From the UHGV virus genome UHGV-0128589: a stretch of DNA of 11,077 nucleotides. One strand, written 5' to 3'. The stretch comes from a virus. The position numbers were made by a program, and so were the translations under genes. Of the stretch, positions 684-11,077 are shown piece after piece (the stretch's first letter is position 1; each line of letters opens with the position of its first letter). The notes beneath the pieces were generated by a model. That model had not been told where the DNA came from. It searched no databases and saw only the letters and a list, made by a program, of their open reading frames with translations.

Positions 684-722
684 GGTGCGAAGGTGCGAAG
701 GTGCGAAGGCCGGACTCAAACC
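684..722. repeat. att-like degenerate copy of the tRNA-Leu 3-prime end (left boundary of the element), preceded by GGTGCGAA x3 tandem repeat
   Basis: ggtgcgaaggccggactcaaacc (700-722) matches tggtgccgaaggccggactcgaacc at 11024-11048 with one indel and one substitution; three tandem GGTGCGAA units at 684-707. Confidence 0.6.
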
Positions 723-772
723 ATCATGTAACACCATAAAATACAAGCAAAAAACATAAACTACACTTTAAA

Positions 773-792
773 GTGCCCCCTTTTGTGCCCCC
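773..792. repeat. GTGCCCCC direct repeat x2, candidate integrase arm-type site at the left end
   Basis: gtgccccc at 773-780 and 785-792; the same TGCCCCC(A) motif recurs beside the int start at 10862-10910. Confidence 0.4.
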
Positions 793-920
793 ACCATTTA
801 TTTGATAATTTTAAGCTCAACTAATTGGTTTATCTCGGAAAAGATAACAAATCCTATCTTCGGTTTGGATCCGTTGCACGGATCCAAATCGGAACAGAAA
901 AAAACTTTTTTTTAGGAAAA

Positions 921-1012
921 CTGTTCACACTGTTCACTAAGCATTTTTGTTTTTAATATTCAGTAAGTTATGCGGTGAATGGTTGGTGAACAGTGAACAC
1001 TTTACTGTTCAC
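921..1012. repeat. iteron cluster of TGTTCAC/GTGAACA octamer-like repeats (P4 ori/crr-type alpha-binding sites)
   Basis: ctgttcac at 921-928, 930-937 and 1005-1012; gtgaacag at 986-993; tgaacac at 994-1000; degenerate ggtgaat at 974-980; both orientations present. Confidence 0.6.
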
Positions 1013-1030
1013 TATTGCCGTTTTGCAGGT

Positions 1031-1055
1031 AAAAAAAGACCGGCGATAGCCGGTC
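1031..1055 (-). terminator. rho-independent terminator downstream of the alpha gene
   Basis: On the minus strand GACCGGC-TATC-GCCGGTC (perfect 7-bp stem) followed by TTTTTTT, 9 nt after the alpha stop codon. Confidence 0.7.
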
Positions 1056-1063
1056 AGGATAGG

Positions 1064-3397
1064 TTATTTCGCTGTGGGGTCATCGCACTTCGGCAGCCAG
1101 TCGGCGTTGCTTTCTTCCCTGAGCGCAAGATTGGTCTGTATGCCCTGATTTTTACGGCGCTTCTCATAACTCAGTCCGTACTCTTTTAGCATCGCTGGCA
1201 GTCCCTTGCCGAACATGGTGAGGCTAAGAGTATTCTTGTAGCCGTGGGCCTCCATGTACGCCAGGTAGGCATGATAGAGGTAAAGTCGCGGCTGACGCGG
1301 AATGATGTTGGCATTGCCAATATACATACCCTCAGGTTCCGGCAGCGCCTCCAGATAGCCACAAAAATCAAATGTCGGGTCGGCGTCGCGCTTGATGCTG
1401 AGCGCCTCGTCGGAATTCTGCTGTGACTGGAGCAGTGTGCGCGCGGTCATCGGGTCGCTGAACTTCTGCATTAGCTGGCGCACAATGACGGCCAGCTCGC
1501 GGGCGATTTTGTTCTTAAGCTGCGGGTCGCGTTCTTCCGGGGCAATCTGCTCCGGGAAATGCAGAATCACCCGGCGACGGGAAACACCGCCGCTGCGGTC
1601 AGTAAAGCGCATCGGGTTATTGTTCACGGCCAGAATCACCGCCGGAATATGGGTGGAGTACGCATCCTTGTATTTCGGGTCTACCGATACCGCATCCCCG
1701 CCGGTGATGGCCTTGAGTCCGGCTCCGTCACCACTCCATTTTTCCTGGTCAGGCAGTCGAATCAGCGAGAAGCCAATCAGTGCGGCACGTTCACGCGGTG
1801 ATTCCAGCGTTTCGATGGTGGCCGACGTGGCGTTATCTTCCCCGGCAAGCATGGTCGCAATTTCGGCCAGAATACTTTTCCCGCTGCCGCCGGGCCCGGT
1901 CACCTCAAGAAAGAGCTGCCAGTCGTAGCGGTTCGCCAGCACCATAAACAGCGCGGCCAGAATCACATCGCGTTTTTCTGGTCTGCCACCGGCAGCACGG
2001 TCGAGCCAGCGCCAGAAATCCGGTGCATGGGTTTCCAGCGTTTCGCCCTCCACCGGCGGGGTAAAATCGACATCACAGAGTGTGCGCAGCCAGTGCGATT
2101 TATCATGCGGGTTGAATGTGCCGGTGGCGGTATCAAGTACGCCGTTGCGAAAGCCAATCAGACGCCGTGCCGGGGCGTCCTGCTGCGGAATAATCAGTTT
2201 CAGGGTCTCCACCACCGAGGCAATTTTTCCCGACGAGAACGGTGCGCGCAGACGCTGGAACAACCCGGCCACGTCGCGGGCAAAGTCCGACGGCGGAATG
2301 ATTTTCCATATCCCGGCCTCATAACGGGACAGGAGCTGGCCGTTCGCGTCCACGGCCAGCGCTTCGCCGTAATGCTCATGCACCCGCATCGCTTTTTCAC
2401 TGGTGCTCATGGCGGTAAATTCCGCCTCGCTCATGGTAGTGAAAGGACTGTCAGCCGGTGGCCGGATGGCCTCATAAATGGCTTTCCGCATCGCCTCCTC
2501 ACCTTTCTGTTCAAATGCGTCATTCCAGTCACCGAACACCGGCGGCAGGGCAACAATACCGTCACAGGCTTCTGCGGCCGCTGCGGCTTTACTCTGGCCG
2601 TCGCCGTTCAGGTCGCGGTCGGCGGCGAGGACAATCTGACAGGCCGGGTATTTCTGACGGGCAAGGCTCGCCAGAGAAAGGAGGTTTGCGGACGACAGTG
2701 CCACCATGACGGTTTCCCCGGTCAGGTGATGTACGGTGAGCGCGGTCGCATAGCCCTCCGCTATCCACAGCCGTTTTCCCGCCTGTTTTTTCCCTTCGAT
2801 GGTGTGGCACGCTCCTTTTACCGCCCCGCCTTTCAGGGTGCGTTTGAGACCCTCAGAATTGATGAGCTGAAGGTTAACCAGTGCATCGGTATTGTCATAC
2901 AGCGGGACAACCACATCACCGGCGCGGAACGTCACGCCGCCGGTTTTATGCACGGCCGTGAGCGTCAGACATTCCAGAGCGGGGAAGCCCTTGCGGGTCA
3001 GGTAGGCGTTGCCGCTGGCCGTGCGGGTTTTCTCCATCAGTCTGACGGCCAGCGTGGCCGCCGCTTTACGGTCTGCTTCGGTTTCAGCCTCTGCGGCCAC
3101 AATCACCTCCGGGGCAACCGGCGACAGGTTACCGGCGACGACATTCACCTTTTGGGCTGCCTCTGACGGATTAACGCCGAACACCTTTTCAACCAGTTTC
3201 AGGCCATCCCCTGCGCCGCACTGGTTACAGAACCACGTCCCGCGACCCTCTTTATCGTCAAACCGGAAACGGTCAGAACCGCCGCACACCGGGCAGGGCT
3301 GATGCCGGTTTTTAATGACCTTCACCCCCAGCGCCGGGAGAATGCGCGGCCAGTGGCCGCACGCCTGTTTTACGGTTTCCGTTACGTTCATTTTCAT
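1064..3397 (-). CDS. alpha: P4-type alpha protein: DNA primase / SF3 replicative helicase
   Basis: 777-aa ORF; N-terminal CxxC...CxxC zinc-binding primase region (CPVCGGSDRF...FCNQCGAG); Walker A P-loop GPGGSGKS in the C-terminal half; RBS GGGAGAA upstream; flanked by iterons, as for P4 alpha. Confidence 0.95.
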   Translation of the reverse strand: MKMNVTETVKQACGHWPRILPALGVKVIKNRHQPCPVCGGSDRFRFDDKEGRGTWFCNQCGAGDGLKLVEKVFGVNPSEAAQKVNVVAGNLSPVAPEVIVAAEAETEADRKAAATLAVRLMEKTRTASGNAYLTRKGFPALECLTLTAVHKTGGVTFRAGDVVVPLYDNTDALVNLQLINSEGLKRTLKGGAVKGACHTIEGKKQAGKRLWIAEGYATALTVHHLTGETVMVALSSANLLSLASLARQKYPACQIVLAADRDLNGDGQSKAAAAAEACDGIVALPPVFGDWNDAFEQKGEEAMRKAIYEAIRPPADSPFTTMSEAEFTAMSTSEKAMRVHEHYGEALAVDANGQLLSRYEAGIWKIIPPSDFARDVAGLFQRLRAPFSSGKIASVVETLKLIIPQQDAPARRLIGFRNGVLDTATGTFNPHDKSHWLRTLCDVDFTPPVEGETLETHAPDFWRWLDRAAGGRPEKRDVILAALFMVLANRYDWQLFLEVTGPGGSGKSILAEIATMLAGEDNATSATIETLESPRERAALIGFSLIRLPDQEKWSGDGAGLKAITGGDAVSVDPKYKDAYSTHIPAVILAVNNNPMRFTDRSGGVSRRRVILHFPEQIAPEERDPQLKNKIARELAVIVRQLMQKFSDPMTARTLLQSQQNSDEALSIKRDADPTFDFCGYLEALPEPEGMYIGNANIIPRQPRLYLYHAYLAYMEAHGYKNTLSLTMFGKGLPAMLKEYGLSYEKRRKNQGIQTNLALREESNADWLPKCDDPTAK

Positions 3398-3411
3398 TGT
3401 TTTTTTCTCCC

Positions 3412-3732
3412 TCAGTGCACAACAGGCGATTGCATGTGACGGGCGCAGAGTTCATCCATCACCGCAAGCCCGAGAAAGGACAGTGACGGCGCGGCTTTCA
3501 GTGGCCCGCCTTCCATTAAATCTTCCAGCAGGGCACAGGCAATCAGGCGGCCTTTTTCCTCGCCGTACTGGCGCAGATAGAAGCCTTCCAGTCCGGCAGC
3601 AATGGCGCTTTCCAGTGCATCAAGGGTGAGATGTGGATAGCGGTGCTGACGTTCGCACAGGGTCAGCCAGGCACAGGCCACGGCGCGACGATACAGCGCA
3701 GCACGCAGAACAGGGGATAATGAATTTTTCAT
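3412..3732 (-). CDS. small protein directly upstream of alpha; position matches P4 cnr (copy-number regulator), identity not established
   Basis: 106-aa ORF; its stop is 14 nt before the alpha start; its start overlaps the stop of the upstream ORF (ATGA), so likely co-transcribed. Confidence 0.65.
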
Positions 3733-3956
3733 ACATTGCCCTCCCCGGTCAGCCAGCGCTGATTGCAGCGTTCGACCACGCCGTCGAGCTGGGCGGTCAT
3801 GAGGTAAATCACGGAGGTAAGCTGTAACTGCTGCGCCGGGTCACGACGAATAGTGGCGCAGTCCTGCACCTGCATCAGTTCGCCGACGAGCTGGCCGACA
3901 TTGCGCATATGCTCCAGGCATTCGAGGTCACGGGCGGTAATGGTGGTGTGTCTCAT
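3729..3956 (-). CDS. hypothetical small protein of the left (replication) operon
   Basis: 75-aa ORF overlapping both neighbours by 4 nt (translational coupling); no recognisable motif. Confidence 0.55.
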
Positions 3957-4147
3957 GCGCGCACCTCCGCAACCGGCAGACGGCCAGCGAACGAGAGGAC
4001 GTAATCACGAACGAGGGAAAGGCGTGCGGCGTGTTCATCACCGGCAACGGTGCGGAGCATACAAATACGGGGTTTACGGTCTGCGCGACGTACAGCGGCA
4101 AACACAAAAACAAACTGCGGGTGTGACGGGGTGAGGGTCGTAGCCAT
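3953..4147 (-). CDS. Icd-like small protein (cell-division-inhibitor / P4 kil-position gene); the longer 183-aa ORF in the track is probably an artefact
   Basis: Internal start [16 protein letters not shown]... at 4147 with SD GGAGGT about 8 nt upstream (alternative ATG at 4171); N-terminus resembles proteins annotated Icd-like in P4-like prophages (from memory, unverified). Confidence 0.55.
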
Positions 4148-4350
4148 AGTGGCAACCTCCAATGTTTGCATGTGACTGCTACCACTGGAAACGCCAATTT
4201 CACTGGTGGTAGCCCAGACGGGGTTGGCGTAACCGGCAACATTGGAAACCGGCGCTTCGTGAGAAGCCCCCGCCTGAGCCACCATTACTCGAAGGATCCA
4301 AAGGTAGATAAATCTCTGGATCAAAAATGGATGCACTGAGGCATAGACAC

Positions 4351-4372
4351 AAAAAAAGACGCAAGGCGCGTC
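4351..4372 (-). terminator. candidate intrinsic terminator/attenuator inside the leader between the AlpA-like gene and the Icd-like gene
   Basis: On the minus strand GACGC-GCCTT-GCGTC (5-bp GC stem) immediately followed by TTTTTTT. Confidence 0.4.
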
Positions 4373-4500
4373 CGGTGTCGCCAATGTTGTAAACGGGACG
4401 CCAATCCCGGCTGCCGATTTTGCGACAGCGGGAAAACTATACCTGGAAACGGCAAACGGAAGCAAGCCAGAAAAAGGGACTTTTTGCTGAGCGGCCATCA

Positions 4501-4767
4501 TCATGCGTCATAACTCCGGTTGCGTTCGGCAATGCGATCCGCCATCCATGCGGTGATTTCAGACTGTGCCCACGCCACGTTTTTTCCGCCGAGGGAGATT
4601 TGTTTCGGGAATGCCTCGCGGCTGATGAGGTCGTAAATGGTCGACCGGGACAGGCCGCATAAATGCATCACTTCGGGCAGACGGATAAAGCGCTCCTGAA
4701 CGACATCAGAGACCGGCATCAGCGGGGCGGCAGGGGCAGAAGACGGGGAAGAAAAAGCGGTGTGCAT
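4501..4767 (-). CDS. AlpA/Vis-family helix-turn-helix regulator / excisionase
   Basis: 88-aa ORF with typical AlpA core [46 protein letters not shown]; SD GAGGT 7 nt upstream of the ATG at 4767; internal start at MPVSD also possible. Confidence 0.85.
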
Positions 4768-5034
4768 CGGGCTACCTCATAAAGTCCATACAGTGCCGGT
4801 CGTGTCCGTCCGGCTTCGGGTAGCTCTCTATTTTGTGAATATTTTTACTCAGGGCAACAAGTCATTTTGTAGTGGCTTACCATACAACAGATTGATTTTT
4901 AAACAATGGCAAACGCTGGCAAACAGATGCAAATCACTGCATTACATTGCAGCAACTTTTATTTCTTTTACTTATATATTTTTCTTTATCAATCGAAAAA
5001 AAGTCTAAGTGATATCGTCAGTGCAAAAAACAGA

Positions 5035-5140
5035 GGGTGAACAGTAGTGAACAGTCAGTGAACAGTTACACCCTCAACTGTTCACCCTTTATCTTACTGT
5101 ATTAATTATCTTTTTCTTTTTAGTGAACAGTAGTGAATAG
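5035..5140. repeat. second iteron cluster of GTGAACAG/CTGTTCACC repeats (P4 ori/crr-type)
   Basis: gtgaacag at 5037-5044, 5047-5054, 5058-5065 and 5123-5130; ctgttcaccc at 5078-5087; gtgaatag at 5133-5140; about 4.1 kb from the cluster at 921-1012. Confidence 0.65.
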
Positions 5141-5215
5141 TTATAAGTAAAAAACAAACAGTGAGTAAGGTTTTCCTGAGACCTTTCTCTGGCCAGCCGG
5201 GTTTTAAGGTCTGTT

Positions 5216-5233
5216 TGTGCCATTTTTGCCACA
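5216..5233 (+). promoter_or_regulatory. TGT-N12-ACA activator site of a P2/P4-type late promoter (Psid-like)
   Basis: tgt-gccatttttgcc-aca with exact 12-nt spacer, centred about 80 bp upstream of the sid start codon. Confidence 0.6.
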
Positions 5234-5305
5234 ACGGCAATGAATCGTGTTGTTGTGTCTGGCGCGGCAGAATCTCTTCAGATTGAAACGAAGAGGAGAC
5301 CCGAC

Positions 5306-6043
5306 ATGACTCAGACCGCTGTTATTCCCGACTATCTTAAACCCGCAATGGAACACCTTGAAACTGCCCGGTCAGCGCATCTTGCCAATGCCAGTCGAAT
5401 GGATGAAACCACGGCTGCCATCAGCCAGGTAAAAGCACAAAAAAATGAACTGGAGCAGGAAAATGGCAATGATTCCGGTGCATGGCGCACCGCCTTTCGT
5501 GCCGGTGGTGCTGTGATTACTGACGAGCTGAAACAACGCCATATAGCGCGTGTAGCACGGCGTGAACTGGTACAGGAATGTGACAGCATGACAGAGGTAT
5601 TGTCTTTTGAGCTGGACAACCTAAAGGGAGCCTGTGACAGCACGGCCAGAGCGTACCGCCAGGCACATCACGGCGTCCTCAGCCAGTATGCAAAGCATGA
5701 GCTCGATGTTGCCCTGCGTGAAACCTGTGGTGCTCTCGTCAGGGCAATGAAACTTAACATACTGGTTCTGAATAACCCTCTTGCCAATACCATCGGCCAT
5801 CAGGGATATACCGAACCGGAAAAGGCTGTGATGCAGCAGGTTAAAGCGTGGCTTGAACAGGCAGTGAAGGGCTGCAACATCCGCCTGACCGATGAGCCGG
5901 TGCTGTTTAAAACAGGACTGTCGGCCTCCACGCTGCCTCATATGGAGTATGACGTTGCGGCCACGCCCGGCCAGCGTCAGGTGTGGTTCGAGAAAATGAA
6001 CAAACGTGAGTCTGACCTTAAGGCCCGGGGGTTACTGTCATGA
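5306..6043 (+). CDS. sid: Sid-like capsid size determination (external scaffold) protein
   Basis: 245-aa product from the internal ATG at 5306 with SD GAGGAG upstream; first gene of a sid-delta-psu arrangement; the ORF-track start at 5240 has no RBS. Confidence 0.8.
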   Translation: MTQTAVIPDYLKPAMEHLETARSAHLANASRMDETTAAISQVKAQKNELEQENGNDSGAWRTAFRAGGAVITDELKQRHIARVARRELVQECDSMTEVLSFELDNLKGACDSTARAYRQAHHGVLSQYAKHELDVALRETCGALVRAMKLNILVLNNPLANTIGHQGYTEPEKAVMQQVKAWLEQAVKGCNIRLTDEPVLFKTGLSASTLPHMEYDVAATPGQRQVWFEKMNKRESDLKARGLLS

Positions 6044-6285
6044 TGCGCTGCCCTTTCTGCCGCACGGCGGCCCATGTGCGCACCAGCCGCTATATGTCTG
6101 ACAGCGTCAAAGAGAGCTACCTGCAGTGCCAGAATGTGCACTGCTCGGCGACGTTCAAAACACATGAGTCGATTTTTGAAGTGATCCGCTCGCCGGGTGT
6201 CGATGAGAAACCCGCGCCGGTGCCGACAGCGTCCGTTGCCATCCGCAAGGTAAAAGGCTGCTACAGCTCACCGTTCCGCCATTAA
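6040..6285 (+). CDS. delta: Ogr/Delta-family zinc-finger late transcriptional activator (single domain)
   Basis: 81-aa ORF with CPFC...(21 residues)...CQNVHC zinc-finger spacing; start overlaps the sid stop (ATGA). Confidence 0.85.
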   Translation: MMRCPFCRTAAHVRTSRYMSDSVKESYLQCQNVHCSATFKTHESIFEVIRSPGVDEKPAPVPTASVAIRKVKGCYSSPFRH

Positions 6286-6301
6286 TCAGGAGAGACAACA
6301 C

Positions 6302-6868
6302 GTGACCACCCTGACATTACAGCAGGCGTTTGAAGCCTGTCAGACGAACAAAACGGCGTGGCTGAATCGTAAAGCCGAACTGGCCTCCGCAGAGCAGGAA
6401 TATCAGGAATTATTACTGGATGACAACGCACCGGGTTCCCGCAGATTACAGATGCTACGTGACCTTATCGACGTAAAAAAATGGGAAGTTAATCAGGCCG
6501 CCGGTCGCTATATCTTCTCGCATGAGGAGGTACAGCGCATCAGCATCCGTAACCGTGTGCATGATTTTATGCAGCAGAACGGCGCAGAACTGGCCGCTGC
6601 ACTGGCCCCTGAGCTGATGGGGATTAAAAACCAGCCCGCGATGATAAAAAACCGTGCGCTTGACCGTTCAGTCACTTACCTGAGAGAAGCTCTTTCCGTC
6701 TGGCTGACCGCAGGAAATGAAATTAATTATTCGGCACAGGATAACGACATTTTAACGGCCATCGGATACAGGCCTGACGCGCCCTCGCGGGATGATTATC
6801 GTGAAAAATTCACCCCTGCACAGAACATGATTTACACCCGTCGACGCGCCGAACTGGCCGCGCAGTAG
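6302..6868 (+). CDS. psu: Psu-like polarity suppression / capsid decoration protein
   Basis: 188-aa ORF with GTG start and SD AGGAG upstream; N-terminus TLTLQQAFEACQTNKTAWLNRKAELASAEQEY resembles P4 Psu as I recall it; third gene after sid and delta. Confidence 0.8.
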   Translation: MTTLTLQQAFEACQTNKTAWLNRKAELASAEQEYQELLLDDNAPGSRRLQMLRDLIDVKKWEVNQAAGRYIFSHEEVQRISIRNRVHDFMQQNGAELAAALAPELMGIKNQPAMIKNRALDRSVTYLREALSVWLTAGNEINYSAQDNDILTAIGYRPDAPSRDDYREKFTPAQNMIYTRRRAELAAQ

Positions 6869-6914
6869 CCCGTCAAAAAATCCTCGTAAATCCCGCTATT
6901 TTTAACCAAATAAG

Positions 6915-6941
6915 CCATGCATCCATAAGGTGCATGGTTTT
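6915..6941 (+). terminator. candidate terminator after psu
   Basis: ccatgca...tgcatgg 7-bp stem followed by tttt, about 45 nt after the psu stop. Confidence 0.35.
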
Positions 6942-7034
6942 GCATGTGTTTTCCCGCCCCTGCACTCCCTGCCAGCGCCAGTCGCGGCGCGACCTGAGAC
7001 CACCTTTGCACCTGCATTAAAAGCGCCCCCTTAA

Positions 7035-7065
7035 GCGGGCAGGCGGGGCGGGGAGAGCATTGCGC
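7035..7065. other. candidate cos / packaging region
   Basis: GC-rich tract gggcaggcggggcggggagagcat loosely resembling the P2/P4 cohesive-end sequence as recalled; located between psu and the accessory genes, where cos lies in a permuted P4 prophage. Not an exact match. Confidence 0.25.
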
Positions 7066-7122
7066 GCAAGATGCCGCGCATTAAAAAGACGTTCTAAAAC
7101 GAAAAAAGCTATAGCGATGAAA

Positions 7123-7143
7123 CATATCTATAAGATAGATATG
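7123..7143. promoter_or_regulatory. perfect 9-bp inverted repeat (candidate operator) upstream of the accessory operon
   Basis: catatctat-aag-atagatatg, about 95 bp upstream of the ATG at 7239. Confidence 0.35.
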
Positions 7144-7238
7144 GCATTACTCCTAAATATGTGTAAAAAATAGTGATACCTATGCAACCCTTTTCTCTGC
7201 TCTTTCAAGGACAAATCTCAGGTTAAGAGAGTCATCAG

Positions 7239-7619
7239 ATGCTAAATCATATTTATGGAATTGTTGGTATAGTTGGCACATTAGTTACGATTGTGACGAG
7301 TTACATCAGAAATCAAGAATTGTCGCAATGGTTCCTTGTATGTTCTGGTTGGCTTACGGCTCTATTGATAGGTTGGTTCACGCATAGAACTATTAAAATT
7401 CTAAGCAAAGATCACAAAGAAACCATCATTAGTAATGATGGTATAAAGCAAACGCTTATAGAGCGGAATGAAACATTAACCACACAACTTACGCATGCAT
7501 TAGAACAGAAAGAAAAAATGGAAGGAATCGCGGCTTATTTAGCAACTCAGAACCCACAAATTAACGCCATGCCTAGAGCCATCGCGCGACAAGAAAATAC
7601 TGAGCTAGGAGGTAATTAA
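7239..7619 (+). CDS. small two-transmembrane-helix protein with C-terminal charged/helical tail; first gene of the accessory operon
   Basis: 126-aa ORF; hydrophobic segments IYGIVGIVGTLVTIVTSYI and WFLVCSGWLTALLIGWF; RBS AAGAGAG 7 nt upstream; AT-rich codon usage unlike the core genes. Confidence 0.7.
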   Translation: MLNHIYGIVGIVGTLVTIVTSYIRNQELSQWFLVCSGWLTALLIGWFTHRTIKILSKDHKETIISNDGIKQTLIERNETLTTQLTHALEQKEKMEGIAAYLATQNPQINAMPRAIARQENTELGGN

Positions 7620-7620
7620 G

Positions 7621-8685
7621 ATGAAAGTAAATTTTGATAGTTATTCATATTATCCTGCATTAAGAACTCGTGCAGCTGAAATACTTGGCTTGAGTAAGCT
7701 TGCTCATGATAAGAAAGAGAAAGTACTTCCACTTATAACCTTAGGGAAATGGCCCCGCTCAGATGAAATTCAAGTTTCTCTTGATAAGAGTCTGGAAGCA
7801 ATGAATAACTTGCCTTTTATTCTGGACGTTACTCAAGAGAACAAGCATCATTGCGCATCAAGCTTTGATCTTCTATCTTCCGAAAATAATTTTTCAAACT
7901 GGATAGCTTTCTGCTCTAAGAATGAGAATATTATCCCCGTAGTTCAAATGCCTGAATCTGCAAGATTAAGGGATATAGTACAGCAAGCAAGAATACTTGA
8001 AGAAAATAAAGGTTCCATTGCATTTCGCATAAAGAACCTTAACACTGATATAAATAAAACAATAGCATCACTTGTGTCTCTCGACTCCCCTGAAAATGCG
8101 GTTATATTCATAGACTTGGGTTACATTCGCGGACATGTCTCAGCAATGACGTCTGCTGCCATAAGTGCAATCAACCAAATAAGGACAGAAATTCCTGAAG
8201 CTATAATTAGTGTACTGTCGACTAGTTTCCCAAGTTCGGTCGCAAACTTTGCAGGAGAAAATGGTCAATCTGGTTATATTGACATTATGGAAAGAGAATT
8301 CCACCAAACTATTGGTGGTCGAGGAGTATCTATATACGGAGATCATAGTTCAATTCACTCTGTTGTATATGATGATGTTGGTGGACGTTATGTCCCAAGA
8401 ATTGACATTGCATTAGATGATGCTTGGTTTTTTGAGAGAAGACCAGGACTTGATAGTAAAGGCTATATAGAAGCAGCAAGAGCGATTCTTAAAAGATACC
8501 CTAATTATCTTGAAGAAGAATCCTGGGGTGCGCTGATGATTAAAAACGCTGCATCAGGCGATATTGCTGGTATGGGGAGTCCCGCTAAATGGATTTCTGT
8601 GCGCGTGAACCTTCATATAACAAAGCAAATTGAGCTATCAGAAGCACTTAAAACAGATTACGATCCTGAAGAGGATTTCTTCTAA
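7621..8685 (+). CDS. uncharacterised 354-aa protein, second gene of the accessory operon; function unknown
   Basis: Long ORF starting 1 nt after the upstream stop; strong SD AGGAGGT 9 nt upstream, embedded in the last codons of the upstream gene; no Walker or other catalytic motif recognisable by eye. Confidence 0.8.
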   Translation: MKVNFDSYSYYPALRTRAAEILGLSKLAHDKKEKVLPLITLGKWPRSDEIQVSLDKSLEAMNNLPFILDVTQENKHHCASSFDLLSSENNFSNWIAFCSKNENIIPVVQMPESARLRDIVQQARILEENKGSIAFRIKNLNTDINKTIASLVSLDSPENAVIFIDLGYIRGHVSAMTSAAISAINQIRTEIPEAIISVLSTSFPSSVANFAGENGQSGYIDIMEREFHQTIGGRGVSIYGDHSSIHSVVYDDVGGRYVPRIDIALDDAWFFERRPGLDSKGYIEAARAILKRYPNYLEEESWGALMIKNAASGDIAGMGSPAKWISVRVNLHITKQIELSEALKTDYDPEEDFF

Positions 8686-8710
8686 AAAATAAGGGAGGGC
8701 AGCCTCCCTT
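8683..8710 (-). terminator. terminator hairpin between the convergent accessory genes (strongest for the minus-strand gene)
   Basis: aagggagg-gcag-cctccctt perfect 8-bp stem; on the minus strand it is followed by ATTTTTT. Confidence 0.55.
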
Positions 8711-9503
8711 ATCGCACGACCCTTTTCAAAACTTTGATGGGAGTGATACTCCCAACCTCTCCGTGCTTTCTCATAAACCCCTCAATATCAACTGTATAAA
8801 AATCATCTAATTTTTCATCAGTATTATCTTCGAAATCTTTAAAGTGATTATGTTCCCGTCTCTTTTTTGATTTACTTAACAAAGTCAAATCGTTAGCATT
8901 CGATAATTCGCTACCTGCTAATTTCTTCAAGTAATCATCAGAAGTTTCTTTATAGCGTTGCTTAATTGCTTTAAGCGCAAAGTCTCTAATTCTAGATAGG
9001 GGAATTTGTTCAGCTATACGCTCTAAAGCCTCACGACCAGACTCGAGTAAAAACTTTTTCCCATTTTCAACAAGAAGTAATTGCAACTCTTTTTTCAGTA
9101 AGAAATTAATATAAACCTTCTTATTACCGAGTACTGCCGTACGCCCACGCTGAACTATTTTAAAACGAATGCCTTTACTAGTATTTATGTATTCAATAAC
9201 ACCAACATCTGATGTTACTTTCTTCGCAATTTCATAAGTAAATTTTGGGGCACAAACAACAGTTACCTTTTCAAAACGAGATGTAAAGGTTTCTAACTGA
9301 CCATCTAATCTTTTAAGAGAGTCAAAATCACTTTTTATTTCAAAAGCTTGCAAGTGTCCATTCGCAACGGCCAGATCAGCGCGGCGACTCCAATTCGCTA
9401 CAACCATTTCATTAATAATGGTTGCGTTCTCTAACAAGCCTTTTTTAAAAAGCCAGTCAATAAATGCGACTTTTACATCTTGCTCTCTTAATAAAAATGA
9501 CAT
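8709..9503 (-). CDS. stand-alone protein with N-terminal PD-(D/E)xK nuclease-like domain and charged helical C-terminal region
   Basis: 264-aa ORF; motif order E7 ... RADLAV (D42) ... AFEIKSD (E54-x-K56) fits the PD-(D/E)xK core; own extended -10 promoter and own terminator; very AT-rich. Confidence 0.8.
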   Translation of the reverse strand: MSFLLREQDVKVAFIDWLFKKGLLENATIINEMVVANWSRRADLAVANGHLQAFEIKSDFDSLKRLDGQLETFTSRFEKVTVVCAPKFTYEIAKKVTSDVGVIEYINTSKGIRFKIVQRGRTAVLGNKKVYINFLLKKELQLLLVENGKKFLLESGREALERIAEQIPLSRIRDFALKAIKQRYKETSDDYLKKLAGSELSNANDLTLLSKSKKRREHNHFKDFEDNTDEKLDDFYTVDIEGFMRKHGEVGSITPIKVLKRVVR

Positions 9504-9529
9504 AATCTCGTCACACCCTTAAAAATTGT

Positions 9530-9545
9530 TAAAAATTATAGCAAA
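9530..9545 (-). promoter_or_regulatory. candidate extended -10 promoter (TGcTATAAT) for the 8709..9503 gene
   Basis: Minus strand reads ttgcTATAATtttt in the 91-bp gap between the int stop and the downstream gene start. Confidence 0.4.
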
Positions 9546-9594
9546 AAAAACAAACTCCATCCATTATTCCTCTTGAGTTTTTTTTGATAAAGAG

Positions 9595-10872
9595 CTAGAT
9601 GTCATTTATTTTACTCCCACAGTCATACGGTGATATATACTCCTTATTATTTAGATCTAAATAATCAGCCCACCACTGAACCATTTTGCGCCTTTCATCT
9701 AAATGTTCTGATGTATGAATATAAGCAGCCCTAACGCCATTACGTTCTGTGTGACTCAACTGACGTTCTATAGCGTCATCGCTCCATAATCCTGACTCAC
9801 CCAGCGCACCACGGGCCATCGTTCTAAATCCATGCCCGCAAACTTCAGTTTTCGTGTCATAGCCCATCGCACGCAATGCGCTGTTTACCGTGTTTTCACT
9901 CATAACCTTAGTTGCGTCATGATCCCCCGGGAACAGCAGCTCTTTATCACCACTAATTTGCTTGAGCTGCTCTAATAAAACCATCGCCTGCCGACTGAGA
10001 GGAACAATATGCTCCTCTTTCATTTTCATGCCACGATACGAGTAACGCACGCCCTTAATTTCTTCTCGCTTTGCAGGTATACGCCAAAGAGATTTATCGA
10101 AGTCGAACTCATCCCAACGCGCGAAACGCAACTCACTGGAACGCACAAAAGTTAGTAAGGAAAGCTCAACCGCGATCCGTGTCATTACACGGCCACGATA
10201 TGCAGCAAGACGTGCAAGAAACTCAGGGAACCGGCTAGAGGGTAAAGCGGGGTAATGTCGCGCTTTGGTTGTCGATAGCGCACCGGCCATATCACTGGCT
10301 GGATTTGAGTCGATGTAATCGTTCTGTACTGCATAACGCATGATAGCCGTGACACGCTGCTGAAGACGCTGTGCGACGTCATGCTTACCACTTGCATCAA
10401 CTTTTTTAATCGGGGCTAACAGGTGGCTAGTCTTGAGCTGGCGAATGTCGGACGAACCAATATGAGGGAAGATATAAAGCTCAAGATAGCGAAGAACGCG
10501 CGATCGATGGTCTTCACTCCAGCGCTTGTTACTGGCGTGCCATTCACGAGCAATGGTTTCGAAAGTATATGCCCCCGAATTCTCGGCCTGAGCTTCTTTC
10601 TGTTCGGCTTTTGGGTCAATGCCCTGCACTAGCAGCTTTTTAGCTTCATCGCGCTTTGCTCTTGCCTGAGCAAGCGTCACAGTAGGCCAAACACCAAAAG
10701 CGAGGCGATCCTCTTTTTTGTCTGAGGGGCGTCTGTATTTCATGCGCCAGTATTTAGAACCCTTAGCCGAAATCTCGAGATACAAACCGCCGCCATCGGC
10801 CATTTTGTAGGTTTTTTCTTTTGGCTTTGCGGTCTCGACCTGTCTGGCGTTGAGCTTCATTTGGGGGCACAT
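9595..10872 (-). CDS. int: P4-type tyrosine integrase / site-specific recombinase
   Basis: 425-aa ORF; N-terminus with the ...KTYKMADGGGLYLEI... motif typical of P4-family integrases; C-terminal HGFRTMARG and downstream tyrosine (VRAAYIH); about 150 bp from the tRNA 3-prime end. Start may be the ATG at 10860 (MKLNARQ). Confidence 0.95.
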   Translation of the reverse strand: MCPQMKLNARQVETAKPKEKTYKMADGGGLYLEISAKGSKYWRMKYRRPSDKKEDRLAFGVWPTVTLAQARAKRDEAKKLLVQGIDPKAEQKEAQAENSGAYTFETIAREWHASNKRWSEDHRSRVLRYLELYIFPHIGSSDIRQLKTSHLLAPIKKVDASGKHDVAQRLQQRVTAIMRYAVQNDYIDSNPASDMAGALSTTKARHYPALPSSRFPEFLARLAAYRGRVMTRIAVELSLLTFVRSSELRFARWDEFDFDKSLWRIPAKREEIKGVRYSYRGMKMKEEHIVPLSRQAMVLLEQLKQISGDKELLFPGDHDATKVMSENTVNSALRAMGYDTKTEVCGHGFRTMARGALGESGLWSDDAIERQLSHTERNGVRAAYIHTSEHLDERRKMVQWWADYLDLNNKEYISPYDCGSKINDI

Positions 10873-10910
10873 TTCTAATCGAAGTTAAGATGCCCCCAAT
10901 TATGCCCCCA
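10862..10910. repeat. TGCCCCCA repeats (two direct, one inverted) at the int start, candidate integrase-binding or autoregulatory sites
   Basis: tgggggca at 10862-10869 (inverted, overlapping the first int codons); tgccccca at 10891-10898 and 10903-10910. Confidence 0.4.
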
Positions 10911-11023
10911 ATGACATCAGGATTTCAACGGACAACCTCGGACGACTCAGGACGTAAAAATCGCTGCAAGCATTGATTTTTAAGGGATAATTGGACTTTC
11001 TCGGATGGTCTTGGAAGTACTTA

Positions 11024-11077
11024 TGGTGCCGAAGGCCGGACTCGAACCGGCACGTATTTCTACGGTTGATTTTGAAT
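11024..11077 (-). tRNA. leuX: tRNA-Leu(CAA), leuX-type, 3-prime portion only (truncated by the window edge)
   Basis: Reverse complement reads ATTCAAAATCAACCGTAGAAATACGTGCCGGTTCGAGTCCGGCCTTCGGCACCA: anticodon loop with CAA, variable arm, T-arm GGTTCGAGTCC and acceptor end with CCA; matches E. coli leuX as I recall it. Confidence 0.85.

Follow-up and report, generated by a model that had tools for sequence, protein, structure and literature searches.

A probable P4-type ori1 replication origin between vis and sid of a P4-like satellite prophage

Positions 5036-5140 of the window (the whole stretch of 11,077 bp of DNA analysed here) very likely represent, with a probability of roughly 0.93 judging from the comparison with phage P4, the replication origin, ori1, of a P4-like satellite prophage. 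This assignment is built on the sequence of the iterons, the non-random density of their copies, their homology to the P4 origin, the cognate proteins encoded by the element, and the conservation of the arrangement within the family, and no feature of the sequence speaks against it. The cluster is real but ordinary: its P4 orthologue is a well-studied origin, and elements of this family are very common.

The satellite element and its iteron cluster between vis and sid

When the whole window was compared with P4 (X51522) by blastn, it was colinear throughout and permuted at the attachment site. The P4-like satellite prophage extends from ~704 to 11048, is bounded by att repeats, and adjoins a tRNA gene. 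The att sites are imperfect direct repeats (27 nt, 85%) at 704-730 and 11030-11056, the right one of which is the 3′ end of the tRNA gene, truncated at the edge of the window; bases 1-703 lie outside the satellite element. ARAGORN identified no tRNA at the integration site in the window, because the window ends inside the 3′ half of the tRNA. Among complete genomes of E. coli, the best match showed ~89.5% identity over 72% of the window. Genes were identified from ORFs together with their Pfam and PHROG matches, as follows:

1064-3397, minus strand: alpha primase-helicase, the presumed iteron-binding initiator; 777 aa, 83% identical to P4 alpha over 775 aa
3412-3732, minus strand: ORF106 homologue, 106 aa (DUF5375); 85% identical to P4 ORF106, Pfam DUF5375
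3953-4504, minus strand: Ash-family ORF, 183 aa (Pfam/PHROG)
4501-4767, minus strand: vis (AlpA family), 88 aa, left neighbour of the proposed origin; 70% identical to P4 Vis/ORF88
5306-6043, plus strand: sid, right neighbour of the proposed origin; 66% identical to P4 Sid
6040-6285, plus strand: Ogr/Delta zinc-finger protein, delta (Pfam/PHROG)
6302-6868, plus strand: Psu (Pfam/PHROG)
9595-10872, minus strand: tyrosine integrase (Pfam/PHROG)

The start of sid was placed at 5306, where an ATG is preceded by a ribosome-binding site (GAGGAG), and not at the ATG of the raw ORF at 5240. The element differs from P4 in its immunity region (an Ash-family ORF and an Icd-like ORF) and in its short delta, which has 81 aa and a single Ogr/Delta zinc-finger domain, whereas P4 delta has 166 aa. 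The only Rfam matches, all on the minus strand and above the gathering score, were to C4 antisense RNA (4202-4289), isrK (4352-4429), and c4-a1b1 targets (4390-4442), all of them inside the Ash-family ORF (3953-4504), which suggests that a P4-type RNA immunity overlaps this ORF or replaces part of it. The cargo between the end of psu and int (7226-9503), which in P4-like satellites is known as a variable or defence slot, is colinear with gop-beta-cII of P4 and ~69% identical to it over 7226-8735; its ORFs encode 126, 354, and 264 aa, compared with 133, 355, and 264 aa in P4.

Between vis and sid, the initial annotation had proposed six or more iteron copies at 5035-5140, in a divergent regulatory region flanked by an AlpA-like gene and sid. 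The count proved to be exactly six type I iterons (GGTGAACAG / CTGTTCACC), the coordinates were right within 1 nt, and the divergent neighbours are indeed the AlpA-family gene vis on the left and sid on the right. The cluster is composed of three direct iterons, one inverted iteron, an AT-rich stretch of 35 bp, and two further direct iterons:

5036-5140, no strand: putative ori1 orthologue as a whole; aligns without gaps to P4 9309-9413, layout kept in 52 sequences
5036-5044, plus strand: iteron 1, GGTGAACAG; top-base frequency 0.95 across 52 sequences
5046-5054, plus strand: iteron 2, AGTGAACAG
5057-5065, plus strand: iteron 3, AGTGAACAG
5078-5086, minus strand: iteron 4, inverted; the plus strand reads CTGTTCACC, and inverted repeats are found there
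5087-5121, no strand: AT-rich stretch, 35 bp, 83% A+T
5122-5130, plus strand: iteron 5, AGTGAACAG
5132-5140, plus strand: iteron 6, AGTGAATAG

The 8-mer within the iteron is exact in five of the six copies, the sixth (AGTGAATAG) carrying 1 mismatch. In the whole window of 11,077 bp, GTGAACAG occurs 10 times exactly, compared with 0.25 expected occurrences, and this count was reached in 0 of 200 dinucleotide-preserving shuffles. Five of these copies start in the vis-sid cluster (5037, 5047, 5058, 5078 on the opposite strand, and 5123), where iteron 6, read as an 8-mer, is GTGAATAG, starting at 5133 and one base off; four start in a second cluster (921, 930, 986, and 1005), and a single isolated copy starts at 112. 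The latter belongs to a GGTGAACAG at 111-119 within the unrelated ORF 21-239; because bases 1-703 lie beyond the att repeats and do not belong to the element, this copy is most likely due to chance. Six hits with at most 1 mismatch per 110 bp were seen in 0 of 1000 dinucleotide-preserving shuffles, the shuffle maximum being 4 (in 2 of 1000), and a chance origin of the 5036-5140 cluster is ruled out by both shuffle tests. Tandem Repeats Finder reported a periodicity of 10-11 bp at 5037-5066 and 5121-5141.

No ORF of at least 50 aa overlaps the cluster, and a coding function for it was rejected, the short ORFs of 22-47 aa found there being low-complexity products of AT-rich DNA. No Rfam family was matched in 4770-5310. 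That the hairpin formed by iterons 3 and 4 is instead an intrinsic terminator, or an RNA element, is very unlikely: a consensus scan (5058-5085) did pick out the perfect 10-bp inverted repeat (5058-5067 / 5076-5085) as resembling a terminator, but the tail, CCTTTATCTT, is a weak T-run, Rfam gave no match, and the inverted repeat is no more than a consequence of two opposed iterons. Transcripts would not be expected to cross 5058-5085, which is located upstream of each of the two divergent promoters.

Correspondence with ori1 and crr of P4

Searching phage records for sequences similar to 4700-5400 retrieved only three, all of them copies of P4, and the P4 region underlying the match is annotated as "origin of DNA replication" and "ori type 1 repeat (x6)". 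In P4 (GenBank X51522), these type 1 repeats are located at 9310, 9320, and 9331 (all minus), 9353 (plus), and 9396 and 9406 (both minus), between ORF88 and sid. Over 4990-5320 of the window and 9260-9600 of P4, column identity is 82%; from iteron 1 to iteron 6, the alignment is free of gaps, with the six iterons and the AT-rich stretch in register. The six iterons of the cluster (TGTTCACC / GGTGAACA), which lie within 105 bp, correspond one-to-one to the six annotated P4 repeats. When the 8-mers GGTGAACA or TGTTCACC are taken as the repeat unit, following the P4 annotation, the start-to-start spacing in 5036-5140 is 10/11/22/43/10, which is near the helical repeat and the same in both genomes.

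The cluster therefore resembles P4 ori1 (X51522 / NC_001609, type 1 repeats 9310-9413) in having six iterons of equal sequence, order, orientation, and spacing, and also in its setting: it lies between the divergent genes vis (ORF88; late, to the left) and sid (late, to the right), has a crr partner, and is accompanied by an alpha initiator. It differs from P4 ori1 in that iteron 6 reads GTGAATAG here and GTGAACAG in P4, and in the sequence of the 10-bp repeats upstream. Alignment shows no conservation here of the sequence of the "type 2 repeats" that belong to the annotated origin region of P4. The place of the three P4 "ori type 2 repeats" (CACTTAAAGT-like) is taken at 4906-4952 by repeats of another sequence, that is, three tandem 10-bp units (TGGCAAACGC, TGGCAAACAG, and ATGCAAATCA) followed by a palindrome (CTGCATTACATTGCAG).

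A second cluster, initially placed at 921-1012 and suggested to form an ori/crr pair with the first, is also real (921-1013). P4 (X51522) has its "crr (cis required region for replication)" at 4291-4590, with alpha and the alpha terminator immediately upstream of it; this region comprises ten type 1 repeats in two direct repeats of 120 bp. Positions 890-1070 of the window align to either of these P4 units and on into the alpha terminator hairpin:

921-1013, no strand: putative crr, one 120-bp-type unit; can be aligned with each of the two 120-bp crr repeats of P4, with iterons at 921-929, 930-938, 985-993, and 1005-1013 and degenerate copies at 974-982 and 992-1000
1031-1056, minus strand: alpha terminator, a hairpin (GACCGGC/GCCGGTC) with a T-run on the minus strand; aligns to the annotated t-alpha of P4

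Judged from this alignment, 921-1013 is a single-unit crr, whereas P4 carries two such units. P4 crr shares with 5036-5140 the iteron, the binding protein, and the requirement in cis together with ori1, but it follows alpha directly and its iterons are laid out as 2 + 3 + 1, which fits 921-1013 and not 5036-5140. The element thus contains, downstream of alpha and in cis, a second iteron site consisting of a single unit.

The homology of both clusters to the annotated ori1 and crr of P4 bears out the proposal of an ori/crr pair in a P4-like element. The accompanying view that the sequence could not tell which cluster is which stands for the clusters taken alone, which share their iterons and each have an AT-rich segment, but it does not stand once P4 is brought in: each cluster aligns to its own annotated P4 counterpart, which settles the assignment of 5036-5140 as ori1 and of 921-1013 as crr. 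The converse, with 5036-5140 as an auxiliary cis site and initiation at 921-1013, draws on the same ambiguity and is very improbable, given that position, orientation, spacing, and the number of iterons all agree between each cluster and its P4 counterpart, and that the vis-sid cluster of P4 is the annotated origin.

The location between two divergent late promoters invites another explanation, namely, that the repeats are mainly operators of the vis and sid promoters and not an origin. A presumed activator dyad is indeed present on the sid side, and a related one on the vis side:

5216-5233, plus strand: TGT-N12-ACA dyad, through which Delta/Ogr presumably activates the sid promoter; aligns to TGT-N12-ACA in P4

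The function of this dyad is presumably that of an activator site, as in the late promoters of P2 and P4. Upstream of vis, the dyad taken to be an activator site (4868-4886) reads TGT-N13-ACA here and TGT-N12-ACA in the aligned P4 sequence. The iteron cluster, however, is located upstream of both activator sites and off the core promoters, its motif is found again downstream of alpha, at a site that lacks a promoter pair, and motif and layout equal those of the annotated P4 origin, which together make a mainly regulatory function highly unlikely. Alpha bound to the cluster may still have a secondary regulatory effect.

The cognate initiator and the proposed mode of replication

Alpha of the element contains zinc-ribbon, Toprim, D5_N, and Pox_D5 domains, and its C terminus carries the origin-binding winged-helix domain of the cognate initiator. 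Residues 671-770 cover all 100 residues of PDB 1ka8 (E=2.8e-46, ~76% identity), the origin-binding domain of P4 alpha in the structure of Yeo et al. 2002. Because the iterons are identical and the binding domain is conserved, we strongly infer that alpha binds to 5036-5140. Adjacent to alpha, the ORF106 homologue (3412-3732) is presumably Cnr, the copy-number regulator acting on alpha.

In P4, alpha binds type I iterons in both ori1 and crr; the two sites are needed in cis, and, once bound, they can pair, looping the DNA. One crr unit is sufficient in P4. The minimal ori1 of ~123 bp encompasses six iterons near the helical repeat and the AT-rich region of 35 bp, and it is inactivated by deletion of a single iteron or by insertion of 6 or 10 bp. 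P4 replication uses alpha as both helicase and primase, together with host polymerase III, DnaA and DnaG being reportedly dispensable, and copy number is limited via alpha by ORF106, that is, Cnr. Deletion mapping of P4 ori1, reportedly from the 1999 work of Tocchetti et al., is said to be the basis for the melting role of the AT-rich region. The overall picture of P4 replication used here follows the GenBank annotation and reportedly goes back to Flensburg & Calendar in 1987, Ziegelin et al. in 1993 and 1995, Tocchetti et al. in 1999, and Yeo et al. in 2002.

By analogy with P4, we infer binding of alpha, DNA looping, melting, and origin firing at 5036-5140. After derepression or excision, the C-terminal winged-helix domain of alpha would bind the six GGTGAACAG iterons, which, being spaced by about one helical turn, would face one side of the DNA. 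Alpha would also bind the iterons of crr, ~4.0 kb off and immediately beyond the alpha gene; ori1 and crr would both be required in cis and would be brought together by alpha-alpha contacts, with the intervening ~4.0 kb looped. Melting would then occur in the 35-bp AT-rich stretch that separates iteron 4 from iteron 5, alpha would act as helicase and primase, and host DNA polymerase III would carry out extension, with bidirectional theta replication proceeding without DnaA, DnaB, DnaC, and DnaG. Acting on alpha, the ORF106/Cnr homologue would keep initiation in check.

DnaA boxes (TTATCCACA, at most 1 mismatch) were found four times in the window, no more often than by chance, and none was found in 4770-5310, which agrees with this mechanism, as do the A+T content of the spacer (83%) and the distance of roughly one turn between iterons. 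A classical DnaA-dependent iteron plasmid origin was considered and rejected, the nearest 1-mismatch DnaA box being more than 1 kb away from the cluster. Origins of iteron plasmids (pSC101, R6K gamma, P1 oriR, and F oriS) resemble the P4 type in their direct repeats in helical phase, the adjacent AT-rich melting region, and negative control by pairing of the initiator. In contrast, the Rep proteins of such plasmids recruit DnaB and DnaG, whereas the P4-type initiator encoded here is a fusion of primase and helicase, and the P4-type origin is bipartite, its second site being ~4 kb away.

Conservation of the cluster in Enterobacterales

Relatives were sampled as 80 loci encoding alpha relatives (58-94% identity) in species-representative genomes of Enterobacterales, and were searched with exact and 1-mismatch iteron scans. 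The closest alpha proteins (94%) are from Kluyvera and Enterobacter. Most loci with enough flanking sequence contain two iteron clusters that flank alpha, at 1.6-2.6 kb on its upstream side and close by on its downstream side, and in each of the 41 loci that could be scored for vis, sid, and at least four iterons, the cluster is situated between sid and vis. In distant elements (from Pantoea, Erwinia, Pectobacterium, and Yersinia), the layout is kept, with a looser iteron consisting of GGTGAA and variable bases. The locus from Chimaeribacter californicus (L081) is rearranged relative to the others: its six-iteron cluster (5849-5949) lies 59-152 bp directly upstream of alpha, without a vis homologue between the two. 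A query of 151 bp across the cluster of the window matched 1281 of 5426 complete E. coli genomes (~24%), and none of the matches listed carries an annotated feature at the cluster in RefSeq.

The upstream clusters of 50 loci were aligned with those of P4 and the window (52 sequences). The mean top-base frequency was 0.89-0.95 for the six iterons, 0.81 for the AT-rich spacer, 0.66 for the spacer between iterons 3 and 4, and 0.52 and 0.65 for the flanks. Spacing varied by no more than 1-2 bp, and the distance from the start of the first to that of the last iteron was 93-96 bp. The sixth iteron reads GTGAATAG (AGTGAATAG or GGTGAATAG) in 33 of the 52 sequences; the T variant is the form most often seen at this position, so that the seemingly "degenerate" iteron 6 of the window is in fact the norm of the family.

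The downstream site varies in copy number, some loci having one crr unit, like the window, and others two, like P4. One alternative is that the cluster, though orthologous to ori1, is a relic without activity in a prophage undergoing decay. In its favour, crypticity is common among chromosomal P4-like elements, and crr is down to one unit here, but single-unit crr also occurs in several relatives with full-length alpha. Moreover, neither the six iterons nor the spacer is damaged in the window, alpha has its full length of 777 aa, the genes vis, sid, delta, psu, int, and the ORF106 homologue are intact, and both att repeats are present, so that decay to a relic is improbable.

The AT-rich stretch between iterons 4 and 5 contains TTACTGTATTA (5094-5104) followed by TTATCTTTTT, both near-invariant in the 52 P4-like origins. 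As judged from this alignment, the conservation of the spacer exceeds what a simple need for AT-richness would demand. Since TTACTGTATTA and TTATCTTTTT are near-invariant while the alpha proteins diverge to 58% identity, a specific recognition element is suggested; such an element could be a start site for the primase of alpha, a helicase entry site, or a site for a host factor. To the left of ori1, relatives carry yet other arrays with a 10-bp period, and such variable 10-bp arrays (4906-4935 in the window) could be specificity determinants for an element-encoded protein. Both ideas, that of a recognition element with a role beyond melting in the AT-rich stretch and, separately, that of specificity determinants in the arrays to its left, are tentative, and we consider them rather doubtful.

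For the satellite itself, the comparison places a replication origin and its cis partner, separable from each other by homology, in a P4-like element, which is of little import beyond annotation. For the family, the P4 ori1 layout is a stable feature across Enterobacterales and is usable as a marker for delimiting P4-like satellites, and it helps in choosing fragments for work on replication and copy number of satellites with defence cargo.
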